Positions 20,347-42,949 of a DNA stretch of 42,949 nt are shown here, piece by piece. The notes below the pieces were generated by a model that saw only the letters and a program-made list of their open reading frames with translations, ran no database searches and had not been told where the DNA came from. The first letter of the stretch is position 1; every line of letters begins with the position of its first letter. The translations under genes and the position numbers were made by a program. The stretch is from Escherichia phage ZH5, in the sequence record OM864357.1; one strand, written 5' to 3'.

Positions 20347-20606
20347 GCGGTGGATTAGGTAAACTGTTAGGTAAGGCCACGGATATGCTTGGCCTTACTG
20401 ATAACGAAGGATTAGAACAACAGCAGCGCATGGCACAACAGCAGGCTGAAGCAGCAAAACAGCAGGCAGCCTTAGAGGCTAACAGTGCAGCTGACAATAT
20501 TGCTGAGGTAAACCCCTCCGGCGCGGCCTCTGCATCTGCAGATGCAATTACGTCTGAGCAGAAGAAACGGCGACGGGCAGGGCAGAGCAACCCCCTGGGC
20601 CTGTAA
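20343..20606 (+). CDS. Hypothetical virion-associated protein (87 aa, Gln/Ala-rich)
   Basis: ATG overlaps the upstream stop; immediately precedes the portal gene. Confidence 0.55.
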   Translation: MSGGLGKLLGKATDMLGLTDNEGLEQQQRMAQQQAEAAKQQAALEANSAADNIAEVNPSGAASASADAITSEQKKRRRAGQSNPLGL

Positions 20607-20615
20607 GGAGGAAGC

Positions 20616-22211
20616 TTGGACTATAAAAAGACATTAGCGGAACTGTTCCTGGGGGACCAGGATGCTGGCGTACTGGATGCGTCAGAGAAGTTTGCTGAGT
20701 GGACGCTGCCTACAATCTTTACCCGAGAGCTCTACACTGATGGGCGGCGTATGCAGCTTAGTCGAGACTATCAGAGTACAGGTGCTCAGCTGGTCAATAC
20801 AGCAGCGACTAAAATTGTAGGTGCGTTATTCCCGCAAGGTACCAGCTTCTTTCGGTTCTCTAAGAGTGCAGCCCTTGACAACTTTATTAGTAGTCTGGGA
20901 AGTTCTAGCACTGCGGAATCCCGTTTATCCGAGGTAGAGAACACCGCCTCTCAGAAGGTGTTTGAGAAGGATGGGTATGCTGCTAAGCTTCAAGCTGTGA
21001 AGTTGCTGCTTATCACCGGGAACGCATTGGAGTATATCGATGAAAGAACCGGGAAATCCATTATCTACTCGGTCCGTAACTTTACCGTTCGAAGGGACGG
21101 TAGCGGGAACGTGCTGCGACTCATTATCAAAGAGCGCGCCAGCATCCAGGACCTCCCAGAAGACATTCAAAAAGCACACTACAATGGTCGAGACCCATAC
21201 AGCGACATTGATATCTACACTGCCGCTTGTCGTAAGATTAAGCACCTTCCAAATGGAGAGGAAGCAGTAAGCTATGAGGTGTATCAAGAAGTTGATGGCC
21301 GTCGCCTAGGTGAGAGCAGCACCTACCCTGAGCTGGAACTTCCGTATAACGTATTGGTGTGGAACCTAGTTAACGGTGAGCACTACGGACGCGGTCTGGT
21401 GGAAGACTATGCGGGTGACTTTGCGCGACTGTCTGTGCTGACCGAAGCGTTGACCAACTACGAGATTGAGGCTTCCCGCCTTATCCCTATGGTTGATGCT
21501 AGTTCTGGACTGGATGTGGACGAGTTCTCTCAAGCCGAGACTGGTGAGGCAGTACAGGTTGGCGGTGGTGGTAGTAATGGTAACACCAAGTCCCCTGTAA
21601 CAGCTTACGAGGGTGGTGCAGCTCAGAAGATTCAGTGGATTGCCAGTGACATTCAGATGCTTGAGCAGAAACTGGCTCGTGCATTTATGTACACCGGCAA
21701 TGCTCGACAGGGTGAGCGTGTAACTGCTTATGAGATTCGTCAGAATGCTAAAGAGGCAGAGTATGCTATGGGTGGTGGATTCAGCATCCTCAGTGACTCC
21801 TGGCTGCGTAAGCTCGCGTACCTGTATACTATCGTGGCATATCCTAAGTTCAAGGTGTATCTCACCGAGGGCGTAGTGGATATCAACGTGATGGTAGGTA
21901 CTGCAGCACTAGCTAAAGCAGCAGCAGCAGATAAACTGCTAGAAGCTACCCAGGCTATGCAGCTGGCTATTCCTGTGCTCAAACAGCTTACTCCTCGCTT
22001 TAATGAGGATGCCTGCGTAGATTGGTACTTGGATGCATACGGTATTGTAAGTGGACCGTTCATGCTCACAGAAGAGCAACTGCAAGAGAAGCAGCAAGTT
22101 CAAGATAATGCAGCGGCGGCATCGGCAGCACAAGCACAGTCGCAGGTACAAGATCTCCAGGCAGCGGATCCTACTGTAGCAGGACAACAACTAGGCCTGT
22201 TACCGGGCTAA
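20616..22211 (+). CDS. Head-tail connector (portal) protein
   Basis: 531 aa, the size and position of T7 gp8; TTG start with AGGAGG 5 nt upstream. Confidence 0.75.
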   Translation: MDYKKTLAELFLGDQDAGVLDASEKFAEWTLPTIFTRELYTDGRRMQLSRDYQSTGAQLVNTAATKIVGALFPQGTSFFRFSKSAALDNFISSLGSSSTAESRLSEVENTASQKVFEKDGYAAKLQAVKLLLITGNALEYIDERTGKSIIYSVRNFTVRRDGSGNVLRLIIKERASIQDLPEDIQKAHYNGRDPYSDIDIYTAACRKIKHLPNGEEAVSYEVYQEVDGRRLGESSTYPELELPYNVLVWNLVNGEHYGRGLVEDYAGDFARLSVLTEALTNYEIEASRLIPMVDASSGLDVDEFSQAETGEAVQVGGGGSNGNTKSPVTAYEGGAAQKIQWIASDIQMLEQKLARAFMYTGNARQGERVTAYEIRQNAKEAEYAMGGGFSILSDSWLRKLAYLYTIVAYPKFKVYLTEGVVDINVMVGTAALAKAAAADKLLEATQAMQLAIPVLKQLTPRFNEDACVDWYLDAYGIVSGPFMLTEEQLQEKQQVQDNAAAASAAQAQSQVQDLQAADPTVAGQQLGLLPG

Positions 22212-31195: not shown

Positions 31196-34100
31196 ATGGC
31201 TCAGTTTCTGAACCGAGAACCGAATCCACAGGAAAAGGATTCTGCTAAGGGCGCAACACTTAAACCTGCGCCTGCGCGTATAGATTGGAACGATGCGGGT
31301 GACGACGGCTTAAACGCACTGGAGCGTGCCTCCTTACTAGCACAAGCCAAGACACCTGCTACTACAGCTGCAGAGAGCTTTGCTTCTGGTATGGGCAACA
31401 GTATCATCGCCGCAGCTATCCGTAAAGCCTCTTCCCCAGCATTCGTCCCAGAGCAGGGGTTTGATGCTAAGAAACAACTAAGCACCGACTCCCGGGTTAA
31501 GTTGTATACTCCCAACCAGGAAGAGATTGATTACTTACATGGAGCAGTGTCTCTAGAGGACTATAACTACCGTATACAGCAGATGCTTGATCAGCGTCAT
31601 CGCGATCGCTTAATGGCTGACAACACAATAGCTGGGTTCGCTGGTGCCATAGCAGGTGACTCCCCATTTCCCCTAGCTCCGATGTCTGCGGCAGGTATCG
31701 CTGGTCGGGCTGGCTTAGCAGTACGCACTGCTATCCGCGCAGCGGATGTAGGTACGGCTGTTTATGCACAGGACCAACTGGGTCAGTCTGCGGCAGTTAC
31801 TGCTCTTGTAGCAGGTGTAGCTGGTCTAGACCAACTCTGGGATATCCGTAGAGCAGTGCGCGCGTCTACAGTAGCTGCCTCAACTACAAGAACTGCTGAG
31901 ACCGCACCTAATACTGCTACGGCAACTTCCCGCACTGCTCCGGAAGAAGTAGCAACAAGTCGCAATGGGGTAGATTCCCCTGCTGGCCCGTTTAATGCGC
32001 AAGCTGATAGTGCCGCGGCTGCTAAAACCACTGACGGTTTACCAGAAGGTTTAAGCTTGAACGTGCTGGATGATGTAGAGCACCACGCTTACTCTGGTGT
32101 ACGTGTACCCGGTATAGAGGTAGAAGTAAATCGCGGAGATAAGTTGGTTGGTGTTGTGCAGGCTTATCGTGTAGGTGATGATTTACAAGTAGCACATGCC
32201 TGGGTTGATAAATCCCTGCGTGGCAAGGGAGTAGGCGCGAGCATGTACAAAGCACTAGTTAAGCGCGCTACTGATGCAGGGTATGGCAACTTGTTGTCTG
32301 ATAGCTCAGTAACTGCGTCTGCTCAGCAGATGTGGCGCAAACTTGGTGCTACAAAAACCAAAGATTTTAAAGAACTAACGGACGGTATTGAAGGGCAGCG
32401 TTATGCGGTCTCTGCGGATGAAAAGTCCCCACTCTTTACTTTAGACTTGAAACGTCCTGTGTTTGACCCAGATGCGCCTACAACTCGTACAGCGAGGGAT
32501 GTTAATGTTACAGGAGTAGGAGAGGGGGAAGAAATCCTCACCAAAGCACTGGATGAACCGATAAAAGTCCTTAGAAACAACACTACTACTGTTAACATTA
32601 AAGCGCAGGACGTAGTTCGATTCCTAAAGACCTCTGAGCATTTATCTAAGGGTCAGAAGGCTATCCTGGACACCTTGGGCGATGCAGTACAGGACATTGA
32701 TTTTAAGTTGGTGGCAGGCTCTTCTAACCGTAGCCACTACAGCTTTCCACTGGTATCAAGAACTGATAGAGGTTTTATATCTTTACGTGCCCCTAAGAAA
32801 GCTAATGGAAGTACTTGGACAACTGTAGGTGACGCCCTACGCGCCATGGACGCCGATACTAGTCGAGTAGCAGTGCACGAGCTGATTCACGCTGCCACTA
32901 CTAGGGCCCTTAAGCGGAATCCTGAAATTGCTAGTAAGCTGGAAGAGGTGCGCGCTGCAATAGCAGCTGATTCAACCCTCAGTGATAAGCTTAAGTACTA
33001 CGCAAGCGATGTGCACGAGATGTTAGCTGGACTAGGTGATAGCCCTGAGTGGGTGGAATATCTCTCCAGAACTCAATCCCCTACCGGTAAGAGTATGCTC
33101 CGCCAGATTGGTGAGTATATCATGAATGCCCTTGGGATCCGTACTAAAGGCTCCGCTTTGGAGGACGTACTAGATGCGTATGAAGATGCTGTCAAGTGGA
33201 CTGCAAAAGACTACGCAGAACAAGTTCAGAGCTTCCGCAGCGAATCCTTCCAGGACCTAGCGGGTACATCGGTTAAGAATGAGGCCCTGAAAGCTCAGAC
33301 TATGATGGACACGGCCAAGCGTAAGTTAGCCACTATGTTCTCCCTGTATGATAACATCGCAGAGGGTAGTGAGGACCTGGCACGCTTATTAGTATCTGAT
33401 GCTACTGCTGTAGGCGGTCGTAAACCGTCTGTGGTGGACTTCAAGCGTAACCTTACGTTGGAGATGGATGCTAGTGCCAGTGTAGTTGAGGACGCTATAC
33501 TTGGTGCCCTCAAGGCCAAAGGTGTAGGTTTCATAGACCGCTTCTTCCACCGTAGCAACTTCCGAGCAGCTCGTGCTGACTTAGAAGGTCGCTTGGGCCG
33601 TTACCTGGACTCTGCGTACAGTGCTGAGGTTAATGGACGCCCTGTACCTCTGCCGGACTCTGACTTGGTTCCGCTAGTAGAGGCATACCGCAACTCCGGC
33701 TGGGCCAGTAAGTGGCACGATCACATGACTGCTGCCGGACTGGTGGATGACGGTACTCTGATTAAATCGGACTATTACTTCCCTCGCCAGTACAGTTACG
33801 ATAAGATGCGCCAAGGTATTGCAAACGGTCGCTCCCTGGATAATTATCGGGATCTGTTCCGTCAGGCACTGCGTGATGTGTATCCATCTATGGAGCCTGA
33901 GGTTGTTCAGCGCGTCGCTAAGGAAATGGTTGATGGTATCTACAACGGACGCTCCTCGGCCTCTGGTCCTATGTGGAAGCAACTCATCAATGGTATGGGT
34001 AATGATGAAGTAGTTATGGCCATGCGTAATGCTGGCGTAGACGAGAGTGCAATCCAGAGTTTCTTGGCAGGTAATGTCCGAGAATCTGGCGCTACCTCGC

Positions 34101-35458
34101 CTGCTAAGAACCTCCGTCAACGTACCCGCTTCAACATGGACAAAGAGTACATCGTAGATGGTCAGGTTATGCGCATGCAGGATCTGATGGATACTGACGT
34201 AGCCAAGGTTATGCATGGTTATACTAACCGAATGTCAGGTCGTGTAGGTATGGCTTACGCCGGAGTCTCTGACCTAAAAACACTAGAGACGATGATTAAT
34301 GAGTCCAAACACGCTCTGGCCGACCCTGGGAAGTGGGAGAAGACCGTTAATGACACCATCGACTTTATCTTAGGTGGGGCACCAGCCGACGCCGGGCAGA
34401 TGCCGGACCTGCTCCGTGCAGCCGGTAACATGGCCAACGCTACCATGCTTAAGAACTCTGGGTTGTACCAGCTTACTGACACCGCTCTAGCGCTGAAAGA
34501 GTTTGGTATGTCCCGAGTACTTCGCAGTATGCGTGAGCAGCCTTGGTTTAAAGAAGGTTCTGTAGCTATTCGCACTCCGGATATGGCTAGTCGTCTGGAT
34601 GCAATCCTACGTGGTAGTATCCAGAAGGAGATGCGCTTCCGCTGGTTGAATACGTACGCCGACGATAACCTGGACTTGACCCGTCAAGCCTCTTGGTTCA
34701 ACGTCACCCAGAACGTTGGGCAGGCTGCACGTCACGTCAACGGTATGAGCATGGTGCATCGGCTGCAAGTTAACCTGAACTCAGGTATTGTAGCGGATGA
34801 GCTCCAGCAGATGTTCAAGGGCGACGCTGAGGCGTTTAAGCGTCTGGAACGTTTCGGTCTTACTCGTGAAATCGCTGACCGGGCTATTGCTGCTAACAAA
34901 GCTAATCCTGGTGCTATGTTCCAGCCGGACCTGCAAATGCAAGTTGAGGTGGTAGGGACGCGTATGATGGACTATTTGGTGCAGCAAGTACGTACCGGTG
35001 AGACCTCGCACTTCGCCCAGTTCAACCCTATCGGCAAAGTAATTGTCGGCTATCAGAGCTTCGCCCTGGCTGCCACCAACAAGATTCTGCGCCGCGAGTT
35101 GAATGATGCCGGGTGGATTGGGGTTGCACACATCATGGCATACCAGTTCCCATTGATGCTTCTAGCAACTATGGCGAAGCACGGTATGGACGGCAAAGAG
35201 GCCGATACTCAGAAGCTTATCGCTGAGTCGGTTATGGGTATGAGTGCCATCGGTGGTATCTCGCTTCTGCAGGATATCTTCACTGGGGACTCTCCGCGTC
35301 ATTCTCTGGCGTCTATGGGCTACGTCACCGGGCTGTTGGGTGCGGTGCAAGCCCTGGCTACTGGGGATATGGATATCCAGACCTTCACTAAGCAGGTCCC
35401 GTTAATCCAGGAATTTGCACCTACGCGGGCTATCATCAATAACTTCGGAGACGATTAA
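31196..35458 (+). CDS. Internal virion protein C (largest ejection/core protein) with an embedded GNAT-like signature
   Basis: 1420 aa; AGGAG RBS; N-terminal Ala-rich low-complexity region; LRGKGVGASMYKAL (GNAT motif A-like) at about 32211-32243; HELIH at 32876-32890. Confidence 0.75.
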   Translation: MAQFLNREPNPQEKDSAKGATLKPAPARIDWNDAGDDGLNALERASLLAQAKTPATTAAESFASGMGNSIIAAAIRKASSPAFVPEQGFDAKKQLSTDSRVKLYTPNQEEIDYLHGAVSLEDYNYRIQQMLDQRHRDRLMADNTIAGFAGAIAGDSPFPLAPMSAAGIAGRAGLAVRTAIRAADVGTAVYAQDQLGQSAAVTALVAGVAGLDQLWDIRRAVRASTVAASTTRTAETAPNTATATSRTAPEEVATSRNGVDSPAGPFNAQADSAAAAKTTDGLPEGLSLNVLDDVEHHAYSGVRVPGIEVEVNRGDKLVGVVQAYRVGDDLQVAHAWVDKSLRGKGVGASMYKALVKRATDAGYGNLLSDSSVTASAQQMWRKLGATKTKDFKELTDGIEGQRYAVSADEKSPLFTLDLKRPVFDPDAPTTRTARDVNVTGVGEGEEILTKALDEPIKVLRNNTTTVNIKAQDVVRFLKTSEHLSKGQKAILDTLGDAVQDIDFKLVAGSSNRSHYSFPLVSRTDRGFISLRAPKKANGSTWTTVGDALRAMDADTSRVAVHELIHAATTRALKRNPEIASKLEEVRAAIAADSTLSDKLKYYASDVHEMLAGLGDSPEWVEYLSRTQSPTGKSMLRQIGEYIMNALGIRTKGSALEDVLDAYEDAVKWTAKDYAEQVQSFRSESFQDLAGTSVKNEALKAQTMMDTAKRKLATMFSLYDNIAEGSEDLARLLVSDATAVGGRKPSVVDFKRNLTLEMDASASVVEDAILGALKAKGVGFIDRFFHRSNFRAARADLEGRLGRYLDSAYSAEVNGRPVPLPDSDLVPLVEAYRNSGWASKWHDHMTAAGLVDDGTLIKSDYYFPRQYSYDKMRQGIANGRSLDNYRDLFRQALRDVYPSMEPEVVQRVAKEMVDGIYNGRSSASGPMWKQLINGMGNDEVVMAMRNAGVDESAIQSFLAGNVRESGATSPAKNLRQRTRFNMDKEYIVDGQVMRMQDLMDTDVAKVMHGYTNRMSGRVGMAYAGVSDLKTLETMINESKHALADPGKWEKTVNDTIDFILGGAPADAGQMPDLLRAAGNMANATMLKNSGLYQLTDTALALKEFGMSRVLRSMREQPWFKEGSVAIRTPDMASRLDAILRGSIQKEMRFRWLNTYADDNLDLTRQASWFNVTQNVGQAARHVNGMSMVHRLQVNLNSGIVADELQQMFKGDAEAFKRLERFGLTREIADRAIAANKANPGAMFQPDLQMQVEVVGTRMMDYLVQQVRTGETSHFAQFNPIGKVIVGYQSFALAATNKILRRELNDAGWIGVAHIMAYQFPLMLLATMAKHGMDGKEADTQKLIAESVMGMSAIGGISLLQDIFTGDSPRHSLASMGYVTGLLGAVQALATGDMDIQTFTKQVPLIQEFAPTRAIINNFGDD

Positions 35459-35459
35459 T

Positions 35460-35948
35460 ATGGCTGAGGAGAATAGGGCCACAGTGGTCTATGATGAGAC
35501 CAGCCCCAGTGGGTTGCGGTACGTAGCCAGCAGGTTTAAGTCTAGAGTAGGAGCCCCTGCGGGGGCCTTAAACTCCAAGGGCTATTATGACCTACGCTCT
35601 GCGCCTACTGGGTGTAACTCTAGGATGGCGCACGCTGTTTTGTGGGAACTACACAACGGGGGCATTCCAGAGGGGTTTGAAGTTGACCACATTGATGGCA
35701 ATCCAAGTAACAACCGAATAGAGAATCTACGTTTGGCTACCCGTTCTTTGCAGGCCTTTAACCGGGGAACACGAACCGACAAGCGCTCAGGTCTACCTAA
35801 AGGCGTATTCGTTAACGGTACAGGATTTATGGGGCGGACGTCTCGGGATGGTGTTCGTATATCTAAGACTTTTAGCACTGTAGAGGAAGCTGCCGCCTGG
35901 GTTGCCGAGGCCCGTAAAGTCTCGGCTGGGGCCTGGGTGCGTAGCTAA
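35460..35948 (+). CDS. HNH homing endonuclease with AP2-like domain (second copy)
   Basis: VDHIDGNPSNNRIENLRLAT HNH motif; ATG 35460 directly after the upstream TAA. Track ORF begins at 35415 inside the previous gene. Confidence 0.75.
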   Translation: MAEENRATVVYDETSPSGLRYVASRFKSRVGAPAGALNSKGYYDLRSAPTGCNSRMAHAVLWELHNGGIPEGFEVDHIDGNPSNNRIENLRLATRSLQAFNRGTRTDKRSGLPKGVFVNGTGFMGRTSRDGVRISKTFSTVEEAAAWVAEARKVSAGAWVRS

Positions 35949-36969
35949 GGAGGTCATCATAGCTTACTCATGGCAAGAACAAATCAAGCCAGCTGGTACC
36001 CAGGATATCCAGTGCGATATTGAGTATTTGGACAAGTCCTATATTCATGTATACCTAGACGGTGTGGAAACCACTGGGTACACCTGGACCAGCGCTACCA
36101 ATATAAGGCTGAATTCGGCCCTAACGGCGAGCACTACAGTGCTTCTCATTCGTAAGACTGAGCGCGAGTATCTGTATATTGAGTTTACTAGCGGCTCTCC
36201 GTTCATCGAGGTGAACGTAGACTCTCAAAATACACAGTTCTTGCACTTGGCGCAAGAGCTTGTGGAAGGCAGGGCTATCCCCGGATTCTACGGGGATATA
36301 AGCATGAACGGGTACCGCATCACGAATGTATCAGACCCGGTGGGCTTGCAAGATGCTGCTACCAAGCACTACGTAGACGTCGGGGATGCTAGACTAGACT
36401 CTCGTATTGATGCAGAACACGCCGCCTGGGTATCCGCTGATGCCGCCATCAAATCCTACGTTGTTTCTGAGGACGCCAGGCTAGACACCCGCATCGACAC
36501 AGAACGCGCCGCCAGGAAGGCTGCGGACGATGCCTTGAGTGTGCGTACCTCCGCTCTGGAAAACACCTTTATAAGTGGTGTAGAAACAGTAAGCTACCCG
36601 TGGAGCACGGTGCTTACAGAGGATACAGACGAGGTAACTCCAGGGCTAAAGTTTACTAAGGCTATAGTAGAACTTAATGGTGTTGGGCAGATTCGTGGCT
36701 ATAGTTTCGAGATTGTAGATAATACCATAATGTTTGCCGAGACTCTCCCTGCAGGAACGATCGTAGCTGCTCGATTAGGTGCTGATGTAACTGCAGGGGA
36801 TGGCTTCGCTACACAAGCATCTGTAGACCACTTAGCCAACTCATTAGGGGCTTTGGCGTACCTAGGCAAAGCAGAGGCTGTGGAGGATGCAACCGGTGCT
36901 GAGGACGTAGTGAATCAACTAAATGCATTACTAGCAGCACTACGTGCCAGCGGAGTAATAACATCCTAA
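35902..36969 (+). CDS. Tail fibre protein with T7 gp17-like N-terminal adaptor domain (start codon uncertain)
   Basis: CDIEYLDKSYIHVYLDGV... aligns by eye with the T7 gp17 N-terminus (NIPFEYLARKFVVVTLIGV). ORF open from TTG 35902; a TAAGGAGG RBS at 35946-35953 is followed in frame only by ATC/ATA. Confidence 0.7.
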   Translation: MPRPVKSRLGPGCVAKEVIIAYSWQEQIKPAGTQDIQCDIEYLDKSYIHVYLDGVETTGYTWTSATNIRLNSALTASTTVLLIRKTEREYLYIEFTSGSPFIEVNVDSQNTQFLHLAQELVEGRAIPGFYGDISMNGYRITNVSDPVGLQDAATKHYVDVGDARLDSRIDAEHAAWVSADAAIKSYVVSEDARLDTRIDTERAARKAADDALSVRTSALENTFISGVETVSYPWSTVLTEDTDEVTPGLKFTKAIVELNGVGQIRGYSFEIVDNTIMFAETLPAGTIVAARLGADVTAGDGFATQASVDHLANSLGALAYLGKAEAVEDATGAEDVVNQLNALLAALRASGVITS

Positions 36970-36981
36970 CAGGAGGATCAT

Positions 36982-37284
36982 ATGGCAGGGGCGGCTAAAC
37001 GCAGCCGTCTCTCGGAGCTGCATCGCATGTTCACAGAGGCTTTGATTGAAGAGATCAAACAGTCTAAAGAAGATGAGGTGCCGCTCCCGGCCGCAGATAA
37101 GTCAGTCATTGCTAAGTTCTTGAAGGATAATGATATCACTGCGGATGCAGATTCCGAGGAGATGCAGGACCTTCGTGACGAATTCGATGATGAACTAGCG
37201 GCGCGCAGAGAGGCGCGTAAACAAGAAATTTTAGGTAAGATTAGTGGATCTGACTCTGAGGACTTACTAGAAGGAATTGTCTAA
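36982..37284 (+). CDS. Terminase small subunit (DNA maturase A)
   Basis: 100 aa, acidic, directly upstream of the large terminase; AGGAGG RBS. Confidence 0.65.
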   Translation: MAGAAKRSRLSELHRMFTEALIEEIKQSKEDEVPLPAADKSVIAKFLKDNDITADADSEEMQDLRDEFDDELAARREARKQEILGKISGSDSEDLLEGIV

Positions 37285-39140
37285 TGGTATCGGTGAAGAC
37301 TGCGCGAAGACTGCGCATGCTCAACCAGAAACTTACTGGTTATAGTGTGAATCCGCGCAGTATTCCCAAAGAGGAGCGCGAGGATATCGCCATGATGATG
37401 GCGGCTACCCTCAGTAATTTCAGGGAATTCGCATACATCGGTATGCGTTTCCTAGGCTTTACGCTCACGGATATGCAAGCTGACATTGCAGAGTATATGC
37501 AGAAGGGCCCTAGGAAGCGCATGGTGGCCGCACAGCGTGGTGAGGCTAAATCTACACTGGCCGCGCTGTATGCTGTCTGGAGGCTCATCCAGGACCAATC
37601 CTGTCGTATACTGATTGTGTCTGGGGCGGAGAAGCAGGCGTCCGACGTTGCGAACTTAATCATTCGTATGCTGGAAACCTGGCCTCTGTTGTGCTACTTG
37701 AAGGCTGATCCTACTCGTGGGGATCGTACTTCATTCGAAGGTTATGATGTCAACTGCGACCTTAAACCTCTGGATAAGTCTGCTAGTGTAGCCTGTGTAG
37801 GTATCACTGCATCGCTGCAGGGTAAGCGTGCTGACCTCTTGATTCCAGATGATATTGAGACCACCAAGAACGGTTTGACACAAACCCAGCGTGAGCAGTT
37901 GCTGATGATTTCGAAAGACTTCGCAGCTATCTGTACACATGGGGATACACTGTACCTGGGTACACCGCAGACCAAGGACAGTATTTATAAAACCCTGCCG
38001 GGGCGTGGCTTCGAGGTGCGGGTATGGCCTGGACGCATCCCGTCAGTTGAAATGGAAGAACGATATGGAAGTACACTTGCTCCTTATATACTGCAGCTCA
38101 TTGAGCGGGGTTATAAACGCACCGGGTTCGGAGTAGATGGGACACTAGGTGAGAGCACCGACACCGGTCGTTATGATGAGGATGCGCTGATTGAGAAGGA
38201 GCTGGACTTCGGCCCAGAGGGCTTCCAGCTGCAGTACATGCTCGACACGACCTTGTCTGATCAGATGCGCACCCGTATTAAGCTGTCGGATATGCTTGTG
38301 TATTCCGGTAGCCTAGATTCCTCGCCTGAGACCTTCTCCTACATTGCGGACCGCCGGTACTTGTACCAGCACGAGCATGAGGGGATTATGGGTCAGCAGA
38401 TGTACTTCCCAGCATTCTATGGGGATATGCATCTACCGTATCAGCATAAGGTGCTAGTAGTGGATCCAGCAGGTTGTGGTGGGGATGAAGTGTCCTATGC
38501 TGCTGGTGGGGCTGCAAACTCATATATTCACTTGTTCTCCGTTGGGGGTTTCCAAGGAGGCGTAAGCACTGAGAATATCGATAAGCTCATTGATTTGTGC
38601 GTAGAGTTGGATATCTCTGACATGGTGGTGGAGAGTAACATGGGGCACGGTACTGTGTCTATGTTGATTCTGAACCGCCTGAGGGAGCGTCGCCTTGCCG
38701 GTATCGGTGTACGCGATATCAACAACACCACGCAGAAAGAGCGTCGTATTATTGACACAATCAGTCCTGTAACTCGACGACACCGCTTAGTGGTACATGA
38801 GCGTGCTATTCAAGATGATATTGGGACTTGTATGCTCTACTCCCGAGACCGTCGATGGCTGTACTCTGCGTTTGCACAGCTCGCAGGTATTACGTATGAT
38901 CGGGGAAGTCTAGCGAAGGATGACCGAGCAGACGCCATTGCTATGATGGTGGCAGTGCTGAACGGGCACCTGGTAGAAGATGAGAAAGTAGTAGCTGAGC
39001 GTGAGTCCGAGAAGATGGCCCTGGCCTTCATTGAGAACCCACTGGATTGGGCACAGAGTAAATTGTCTAAGGGACTTCGCGGTGTAGCGGCTCGGTTGCA
39101 GAACCGTGGCAGAGGTAAACAACATAGAGGAAGAAGATAA
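37284..39140 (+). CDS. Terminase large subunit (DNA maturase B)
   Basis: 618 aa; Walker A-like GAEKQAS/LIVSG region and VLVVDPAGCGGDE nuclease-domain motif; T7 gp19-like size and position. Confidence 0.8.
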   Translation: MVSVKTARRLRMLNQKLTGYSVNPRSIPKEEREDIAMMMAATLSNFREFAYIGMRFLGFTLTDMQADIAEYMQKGPRKRMVAAQRGEAKSTLAALYAVWRLIQDQSCRILIVSGAEKQASDVANLIIRMLETWPLLCYLKADPTRGDRTSFEGYDVNCDLKPLDKSASVACVGITASLQGKRADLLIPDDIETTKNGLTQTQREQLLMISKDFAAICTHGDTLYLGTPQTKDSIYKTLPGRGFEVRVWPGRIPSVEMEERYGSTLAPYILQLIERGYKRTGFGVDGTLGESTDTGRYDEDALIEKELDFGPEGFQLQYMLDTTLSDQMRTRIKLSDMLVYSGSLDSSPETFSYIADRRYLYQHEHEGIMGQQMYFPAFYGDMHLPYQHKVLVVDPAGCGGDEVSYAAGGAANSYIHLFSVGGFQGGVSTENIDKLIDLCVELDISDMVVESNMGHGTVSMLILNRLRERRLAGIGVRDINNTTQKERRIIDTISPVTRRHRLVVHERAIQDDIGTCMLYSRDRRWLYSAFAQLAGITYDRGSLAKDDRADAIAMMVAVLNGHLVEDEKVVAERESEKMALAFIENPLDWAQSKLSKGLRGVAARLQNRGRGKQHRGRR

Positions 39141-42822: not shown

Positions 42823-42949
42823 GGGGGGGGGGGGCCGTCTAGACGTCTAGATGGCTAGTTGGGGGCCAGCTGGGGGCCGTCTAGGGCGCACCAGGAGGGC
42901 CGTAGAGGCTCTCTGCGCGGTCTAATGGCTATCCCTAGTGCTATCCTAT
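42823..42949. repeat. Right copy of direct terminal repeat
   Basis: Identical to 1-127; preceded by one extra G (13-G run at 42822-42834). Confidence 0.85.

Follow-up and report, generated by a model that had tools for sequence, protein, structure and literature searches.

The window analysed here, 42,949 nucleotides long, is the complete linear genome of Escherichia phage ZH5 (sequence record OM864357.1), and our subject is the start of its gp17-like tail fibre gene, which lies immediately behind a free-standing HNH homing-endonuclease gene. The best explanation of this locus, and one that comparison of related sequences leads us to regard as likely, is that translation of the fibre is driven by a consensus Shine-Dalgarno (SD) sequence and initiates at the near-cognate codon AUA, or at AUC in Enterobacter phage phiKDA1. 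Every HNH-bearing haplotype that we compared carries ATA or ATC (collectively ATH) at the position where HNH-less relatives carry ATG or GTG, an association with the inserted cassette that is one-to-one.

The fibre initiation region and its HNH-less counterparts

The elements that bear most directly on the start of the fibre gene, with their positions in the window, are the following.

35447-35450 and 35456-35458, + strand: ancestral fibre initiation region within the 3' end of gp16, comprising the weak SD GGAG and the gp16 stop TAA, respectively
35460-35948, + strand: free-standing HNH homing-endonuclease gene, 162 aa (Pfam HNH_3, E 1.7e-20; PHROG 99 'HNH endonuclease', E 1.8e-40)
35946-35953, + strand: consensus Shine-Dalgarno sequence TAAGGAGG, from the 3' end of the cassette
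35954-35958, + strand: spacer TCATC, 5 nt
35959-35961, + strand: ATA, proposed fibre initiation codon, positional homologue of the ATG or GTG of HNH-less relatives
35959-36969, + strand: tail fibre or tailspike adaptor gene with a gp17-like N-terminal domain, 336 codons counted from ATA

The HNH open reading frame (ORF), distinct from both flanking genes, begins at ATG 35460 and ends at the TAA at 35946-35948, inside TAAGGAGG. A preliminary description of this DNA had drawn attention to the ribosome binding site (RBS) at 35946-35953 that overlaps the HNH stop, and to the lack of any ATG, GTG or TTG in the fibre frame between that site and the TTG at 36028. Both observations are correct as to their coordinates, and the TTG in question is codon 24 of the fibre. 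What follows the SD in the fibre frame is ATC 35956, ATA 35959 and GCT 35962.

The coding strand has three copies of the octamer TAAGGAGG, where about 1.1 would be expected on both strands together. The other two lie 4 nt upstream of the portal start (TTG 20616) and of the nozzle start (ATG 25485), whose RBSs they are; the copy before the fibre is unlikely to be a chance match. SD strength is given here as the predicted SD:anti-SD duplex energy. By this measure the fibre SD of ZH5 reaches -12.7 kcal/mol, alongside -12.1 kcal/mol for the portal RBS and -12.6 kcal/mol for that of the nozzle; all HNH-bearing fibre initiation regions fall between -11.1 and -12.9 kcal/mol, and the ancestral fibre region, which now serves the HNH gene, gives -6.6 kcal/mol. 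At the portal (20604-20618) a TTG start stands behind a perfect TAAGGAGG, and the strongest SDs of ZH5 are paired with weak starts more than once.

Loci for comparison were drawn from IMG/VR, GenBank phages and ENA/Logan assemblies, 87 in all, which reduce to 57 distinct 120-nt junction haplotypes. In HNH-less relatives ...TTCGGAGACGATTAAT runs directly into the fibre ATG or GTG; the junction there reads ...TTCGGAGACGATTAA T ATG GCA TWC AGC TGG CAA... (MA[YF]SWQEQIK), with the start 1 nt after the gp16 stop. The fibre start codon of the HNH-less phages corresponds to ATG 35460 in ZH5, where it reads ATG GCT GAG... and opens the HNH gene, and the fibre sequence is picked up again 3' of the cassette with TAAGGAGG TCATC ATA GCT TAC TCA TGG CAA. 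The first fibre codon is canonical in all 47 HNH-less haplotypes (ATG in 39, GTG in 8). At the corresponding position nine of the ten HNH-bearing haplotypes have ATA and one, that of phiKDA1 (genus Koutsourovirus), has ATC; three further short contigs likewise have ATA. The HNH-bearing set spans two genera and, in addition to ENA metagenomes, numbers over 15 isolates from several countries, Malaysia, China, Australia and India among them.

Alignment with orthologous fibre genes that lack the insertion, a check proposed in the preliminary description, thus places the near-cognate codon of the HNH-bearing phages on the canonical start of 47 haplotypes, and at a functional distance from an SD. 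In this alignment it is ATA 35959 that matches the ancestral fibre ATG in position; ATC 35956 does not. Initiation at AUA or AUC was among the options first put forward; the comparison favours it, at the ATA that stands 5 nt from the SD. A start-codon-agnostic DNA pattern for further HNH-bearing or TCN alleles returned SFN6B and phiKDA1 alone in IMG/VR and, in JGI metagenomes, 78 matches that all look like chance.

The SD and its distance from ATH are constant features of the HNH-bearing alleles. A strong SD core (GGAGG, GGGGG or GGGAGG) lies exactly 5 nt before ATH in every such haplotype, the combinations of SD and spacer being TAAGGAGG-TCATC, TAAGGAGG-TCATT, TAAGGGGG-CTACC, TAAGGGGG-CTATC, TAAGGGGG-TTATC, TAAGGGAGG-CTACC and TGAGGAGG-TCATC; the letters of the spacer vary and its length is always 5 nt. 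A 1-nt insertion in the metagenome contig L230 falls in the G-run of the SD, 5' of the spacer, and preserves the spacing. Read in the fibre frame, the bases of the SD spell KEVI, KGAT or KGAI, or are out of frame, according to lineage. Because the amino acids encoded over the SD change in this way, it is the purine run and its spacing that are conserved, and not a peptide.

The fibre ORF matches Pfam Phage_T7_tail (PF03906; E 2.4e-17, 63.5 bits against a cut-off of 25.2) from residue 13, counting ATA as residue 1, and PHROG 2710 (E 1e-113). The T7 gp17-type N-terminal domain is matched from the very first residue of a solved homologue: the PDB chain 23sh_r, 'tail fiber gp9', which begins MAYSWQEQIK, aligns over its residues 1-153 to residues 1-153 of ZH5 (E 6.5e-88), and the sole N-terminal difference between the ZH5 fibre and this Drulisvirus protein is ATA for ATG as the genomic first codon. 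Homologues down to 50% identity, together with the virion protein 23sh_r, all start M-A-x-S-W and have no N-terminal extension. A 307-aa fibre that starts MAYSWQEQ is also found in P0022 (Logan/ENA, contig of 42,383 bp), in the same 90% cluster as the fibre of L230; it may belong to a sibling lacking the HNH gene or to an HNH-bearing allele whose ATG has been restored.

Among the Drulisvirus HNH-bearing lineages, change in codons 2-23 is mostly synonymous (GCT/GCA, TAC/TAT, GGT/GGC), with six synonymous and two non-synonymous differences between ZH5 and KMI5, and in the far more diverged phiKDA1 codons 2 and 4 are still synonymous (GCC, TCC). Because the variation is of this kind, codons 2-23 are taken to be translated, and the pattern of substitution indicates that they are under purifying selection.

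In ZH5 an HNH gene is thus inserted exactly at the gp16/fibre junction and has captured the weak SD GGAG and the ATG of the fibre. The last bases of the cassette give the fibre a replacement initiation region, composed of a consensus SD, a 5-nt spacer and the former ATG, now ATA. In the mechanism that we propose, 30S subunits would bind the very strong TAAGGAGG and fMet-tRNA would initiate on AUA 35959 (AUC in phiKDA1), yielding fMet-Ala-Tyr-Ser-Trp... with the N-terminal peptide (M)AYSWQEQIKPAGTQDIQCDIEYLDK and, once Met is removed, the same protein as in HNH-less phages. We infer both the decoding of AUA by the initiator tRNA and the amount of protein that would result.

Initiation of this kind is physically plausible because AUA and AUC measurably initiate in E. 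coli and in vitro. In E. coli in vivo both reach 1-2% of the AUG level, and an AUC construct examined by mass spectrometry carried Met at its N-terminus (bioRxiv 10.1101/063800). About 15% of translation was left in a T4 rIIB AUG>AUA mutant, and a phage HB-3 hydrolase construct with AUA gave 7.5% (both cited in PMC5499595); in vitro, an AUA mRNA performs as well as its AUG counterpart when the initiation region is optimised (PMC5499595). In the ZH5 fibre the consensus SD would roughly offset a penalty for AUH starts of approximately 10-100-fold. The gene moreover appears tolerant of weak initiation, the HNH-less phages having a weak SD and, in 8 of 47 haplotypes, GTG.

Competing starts for the fibre gene

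Four other codons in or near the initiation region have been used, or could be considered, as the start of the fibre or of a reading frame leading into it.

35902-35904, + strand: TTG, upstream in-frame candidate (-57) and start in the SFN6B RefSeq annotation; judged non-functional
35970-36023, + strand: out-of-frame ATG with a 17-codon ORF ending in TGA; incidental to the adjoining codons TCA TGG and 16 nt away from the SD
36028-36030, + strand: TTG, codon 24, first canonical in-frame start downstream; rejected, being CTG in KMI5 and phiKDA1
36139-36141, + strand: GTG, codon 61, start in the public ZH5 record UOL48267.1 (276-aa 'tail fibers protein'); cuts into the conserved N-terminal domain

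The alternative that survives best, which we nevertheless consider unlikely, starts the ZH5 fibre at TTG 35902, inside the HNH gene. The protein would then carry a 19-residue N-terminal extension, ATA would be an internal Ile codon, and a junction-crossing peptide would exist, EVIIAYSWQEQIK in ZH5 and GATIAYSWQEQIK in P284. The preliminary description had correctly singled out this TTG, 44 nt before the SD, as the only upstream in-frame start; it is the sole canonical one in ZH5, where a TAG at -78 closes the frame. From that point the frame is open, the TTG at -57 is shared by ZH5, SFN6B, P284 and KMI5, the RefSeq record of SFN6B annotates it as the start, and the change from ATA to ATC between genera is synonymous for Ile. 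Against these points, the TTG is absent in phiKDA1 and in the metagenome contig L246, and in-frame upstream starts, where present, shift from lineage to lineage (-57, -30, -72/-45/-39). TTG 35902 is without a usable SD, the best pairing reaching -6.0 kcal/mol at a distance of about 13-15 nt. The fibre-frame peptide ahead of ATH, which would form the extension, is not conserved, whereas the SD sequence and the overlapping HNH frame are, and the homologues all lack anything before M-A-x-S-W.

Two independent metagenomic lineages close the upstream frame. In L230/L245 (ERZ27299209 k141_19778, 41 kb) the 1-nt insertion in the G-run of the SD creates a fibre-frame TAG at -18, and in L246 (ERZ28810347 NODE_20913) a substitution creates a TAG at -42, with the HNH gene intact and its protein 86% identical to that of ZH5. 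Because each stop is followed by no ATG, GTG or TTG before ATA, the upstream start is cut off from the fibre and excluded in both lineages. Between the in-frame stop and the conserved codon 2, ATA is the sole start-like codon with a workable SD spacing; L246 additionally has an ATC at -3, merely 2 nt from the SD. From these sequences we judge the upstream start to be refuted for L230/L245 and L246 and improbable for ZH5. A start displaced by the HNH insertion, another of the options raised at the outset, thus stands in its historical sense, the HNH gene now using the SD and ATG of the fibre, but fails if it is taken to mean that the fibre now begins at TTG 35902, given the poor and mis-spaced SD of that codon, its absence from phiKDA1 and L246, and the stops in two lineages.

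Several considerations weigh against initiation at AUA or AUC. Starts of the AUH type are as a rule weak, at 1-2% in vivo, IF3 disfavours them, and an adequate yield of fibre is an assumption; our literature search found no proteomic paper on any HNH-bearing phage. The HNH-bearing alleles may share one origin, and the 10-versus-47 association does not amount to 57 independent observations. Alternation between ATA and ATC is equally expected of a synonymous internal Ile codon. Both lineages that close the upstream frame are known from metagenome contigs, L246 at about 2x coverage and with a chimeric far end, L230 with a frameshifted HNH gene, and their viability is inferred from assemblies, not isolates. 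Finally, ZH5 itself keeps the open in-frame TTG at -57, and an N-terminally extended isoform may be made in this phage.

Termination-reinitiation, to which we assign a smaller chance than to the upstream start, is a variant of initiation at AUA and not an exclusive rival to it: ribosomes ending HNH translation at UAA 35946 would restart 10 nt further on, still at AUA, and the fibre would depend on translation of the HNH gene. The HNH stop, 10 nt before ATA and overlapping the SD, has the classical geometry of coupling, which is frequent in the neighbourhood of free-standing endonuclease genes (PMC2988022). However, coupling alone would call for a much weaker SD than the one present, and this SD persists together with ATA where the HNH ORF is broken well upstream. 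This is so in L230/L245, where a frameshift leaves 106 aa in the decaying ORF (L230, ENA ERZ27299209, 631-951), and in L247 (ENA ERZ28574879, 901-1350), where a nonsense codon leaves 149 aa.

A downstream start, at TTG 36028 or at the GTG 36139 of the ZH5 GenBank record, would produce an N-terminally truncated fibre and is very improbable. These are the first canonical in-frame starts 3' of the SD, and gene callers chose such starts in ZH5, KMI5 and metagenome contigs. We reject them: codon 24 is CTG in two lineages, KMI5 and phiKDA1, the constrained codons 2-23 with their synonymous-dominated variation would lie outside the gene, SD pairing at TTG 36028 amounts to just -2.2 kcal/mol, and the truncation would cost the tail-attachment domain N-terminal residues that are strictly conserved.

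Equally improbable is an artefact or a recoding event. Under this we considered a sequencing error at 35961, decay of the fibre into a pseudogene, +1 frameshifting out of either the HNH frame or the ORF of ATG 35970, and splicing of an intron that would join ATG 35460 to GCT 35962. Removal of the HNH block in silico does restore ATG GCT TAC TCA TGG, and the step from the HNH frame to the fibre frame is +1. Yet the same ATH recurs in every independent HNH-bearing genome or contig examined, among them more than 15 independently sequenced genomes, which disposes of the 1-nt sequencing error suggested in the preliminary description; purifying selection on the fibre speaks against a pseudogene. An E-value scan of 35200-36300 against Rfam gave no intron or other RNA family at E<=1, the ORF takes up 489 of the 499 inserted bases, and local folding is not significant (minimum free energy z -0.44). 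The codons before the HNH stop vary (AGC, AGT, CAT), leaving no conserved slippery site, and neither a stimulatory structure nor a ribozyme core, as programmed frameshifting, bypassing or an intron would call for, was found. ATG 35970 is, as originally described, out of frame and opens a 17-codon ORF; it is missing in phiKDA1, which has TCC TGG. The broken HNH ORFs of L230 and L247, in which SD-ATA persists, speak against a fusion of HNH to fibre. A predicted 9-bp stem, CCUGGGUGC / GGUACCCAGG, was discarded because KMI5 and phiKDA1 do not preserve it.

Public annotations of the fibre start in GenBank are divided among TTG -57 (SFN6B), ATG -30 (the P284 group), ATG -72 (phiKDA1), +168 (KMI5) and the codon-61 GTG (ZH5), and the record of Klebsiella phage KMI3 leaves the fibre gene uncalled. 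Each public record of HNH-bearing phages mis-annotates the fibre gene, two of them by truncating the tail-attachment domain.

The cassette, its linked substitutions and the genomic setting

At the gp16/fibre junction the cassette is present in about 20 loci and absent in 67, at exactly the same site and with both states found among close relatives; its ORF accounts for 489 of 499 inserted bases. The HNH domain and the presence/absence polymorphism outside any intron or intein identify it, on sequence grounds, as a free-standing HNH homing endonuclease whose nuclease activity is predicted. Identity of the HNH protein falls to 59% within the HNH-bearing set. An exact-protein look-up gave no record for the ZH5 HNH protein, and the same look-up with the small terminase led to HNH-less contigs only.

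Insertion of the cassette is accompanied by a short run of substitutions in the fibre gene.

35961-35970, + strand: substitution cluster at fibre nt 3, 6 and 10-12 (ATG>ATA, GCA>GCT, AGC>TCA)

Compared with eight relatives that lack the HNH gene, ZH5 has changes at fibre nt 3, 6 and 10-12, and 0-3 further positions differ between there and about nt 57. At the fibre Ser codon the 47 HNH-less haplotypes all read AGC or AGT, and the ten HNH-bearing ones all read TCA or TCC. The cluster could mark endonuclease target-site immunity or a very short co-conversion tract from a donor lineage. We entertain tentatively, as possible but doubtful, the idea that loss of the start codon is the cost of a selfish element: the HNH enzyme would recognise the fibre start, ATG>ATH together with AGC>TCN (nt 3 and 10-12) would allow escape from self-cleavage, and the consensus SD would compensate. 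Under such immunity the change at nt 3 would entail the loss of AUG, position 3 of the start codon being otherwise unchangeable, and an essential fibre gene would be committed to near-cognate initiation, perhaps sensitive to IF3, until the cassette is lost.

Two analogies argue against immunity. Free-standing endonucleases often cleave far from their insertion site (PMC2988022), and paralogous HNH_3 cassettes on the terminase side carry a downstream SD yet keep ATG. The latter lie directly before the large terminase gene in Aeromonas phage PT2 and Salmonella phage PRF-SP1 and resemble the ZH5 cassette in that the last codons of the HNH gene carry the SD of the gene downstream (GAGGAGG or GGAGGG, then 5 nt); unlike in ZH5, the downstream gene keeps a canonical ATG both in PT2 (L233, 1560-1600) and in PRF-SP1 (L234, 1590-1620). 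We also considered ATH as a general effect of HNH_3 cassettes and rejected it; because both of these paralogues retain ATG, ATH is specific to the cassette at the fibre junction. In Aeromonas phage PT2 the HNH ORF is itself unannotated.

ZH5 is a KP34-like podophage of the genus Drulisvirus, Autographiviridae, and its fibre region (35400-37000) is 96% identical to that of Shigella phage SFN6B. The gene order on the + strand is gp16-like gene, HNH_3 gene, gp17-like fibre/adaptor gene, small terminase and large terminase, with the genes that flank the fibre and cassette placed as follows.

31196-35458, + strand: gp16-like internal virion protein, 1420 aa (from the ORF list and the annotation of the SFN6B homologue)
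36982-37284, + strand: small terminase
37284-39140, + strand: large terminase

In ZH5 a GNAT acetyltransferase domain (Pfam PF00583, E 5e-7) is inserted in gp16 at about residues 311-401; gp16 of most relatives has 1232 aa and is without this domain, and an acetyltransferase on an ejected internal protein is unusual. The genome ends in direct terminal repeats of 127 bp, exact, at 1-127 and 42823-42949, each with a G-run ahead of it, which at the left end is 12 G long. Just inside the left repeat, at 171-203, an 11-nt unit occurs three times in tandem (GGGAGGCACTA / ...CACTG).

Precedents and significance

Natural starts that depart from AUG at the third position have known counterparts in E. 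coli. Like infC (AUU/AUC) and pcnB (AUU), the ZH5 fibre gene would have a natural, phylogenetically conserved first codon of this type, one of the 'class IIA' start codons AUU, AUC, AUA and CUG (PMC5499595; bioRxiv 10.1101/063800), and its AUA would likewise be read by the initiator tRNA, subject to discrimination by IF3. It differs from infC and pcnB in the codon itself, which is AUA, in belonging to an essential virion gene with no sign of autoregulation, in its link to a mobile element and in its consensus SD. Laboratory AUG>AUA mutants (T4 rIIB and the truncated HB-3 murein hydrolase) offer another likeness: in E. coli, AUA behind a functional SD still yields about 7-15% of what AUG gives (PMC5499595); unlike those engineered or selected mutants, the ZH5-type AUA is naturally fixed and conserved across two phage genera.

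The cassette has its own parallels in the free-standing HNH and GIY-YIG endonucleases of T-even phages (mob, seg; 'intronless homing'), small ORFs between conserved genes that are patchy among close relatives and overlap the translation signals of their neighbours. Such elements must avoid harming the expression of neighbouring genes (PMC2988022). The T4 elements are described as intergenic, and we found no altered downstream start there; in contrast, the ZH5 cassette, with its predicted endonuclease activity, takes the SD and ATG of its neighbour and leaves a non-canonical start behind.

No account of the locus turned up in literature searches on these phages, on Drulisvirus with HNH and start codon, or on AUA with homing endonuclease. 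We know of no established natural AUA start in enterobacteria or their phages. What appears to be new is a probable natural, conserved AUA/AUC start in an essential virion gene, tied one-to-one to a mobile cassette that seized the earlier start codon and supplied an SD in exchange; the mechanism is known in principle.

Conserved natural AUA and AUC starts are extremely rare in enterobacteria and their phages. The phages concerned include therapeutic candidates against Klebsiella, E. coli and Shigella, whose tailspikes are anchored by the fibre protein, and gene callers limited to ATG, GTG and TTG will go on mis-calling its start. If initiation at AUA is true, the locus would offer a clean natural test of how far a consensus SD rescues a near-cognate start, and would show a homing-endonuclease cassette rewiring the translation signals of its neighbour.

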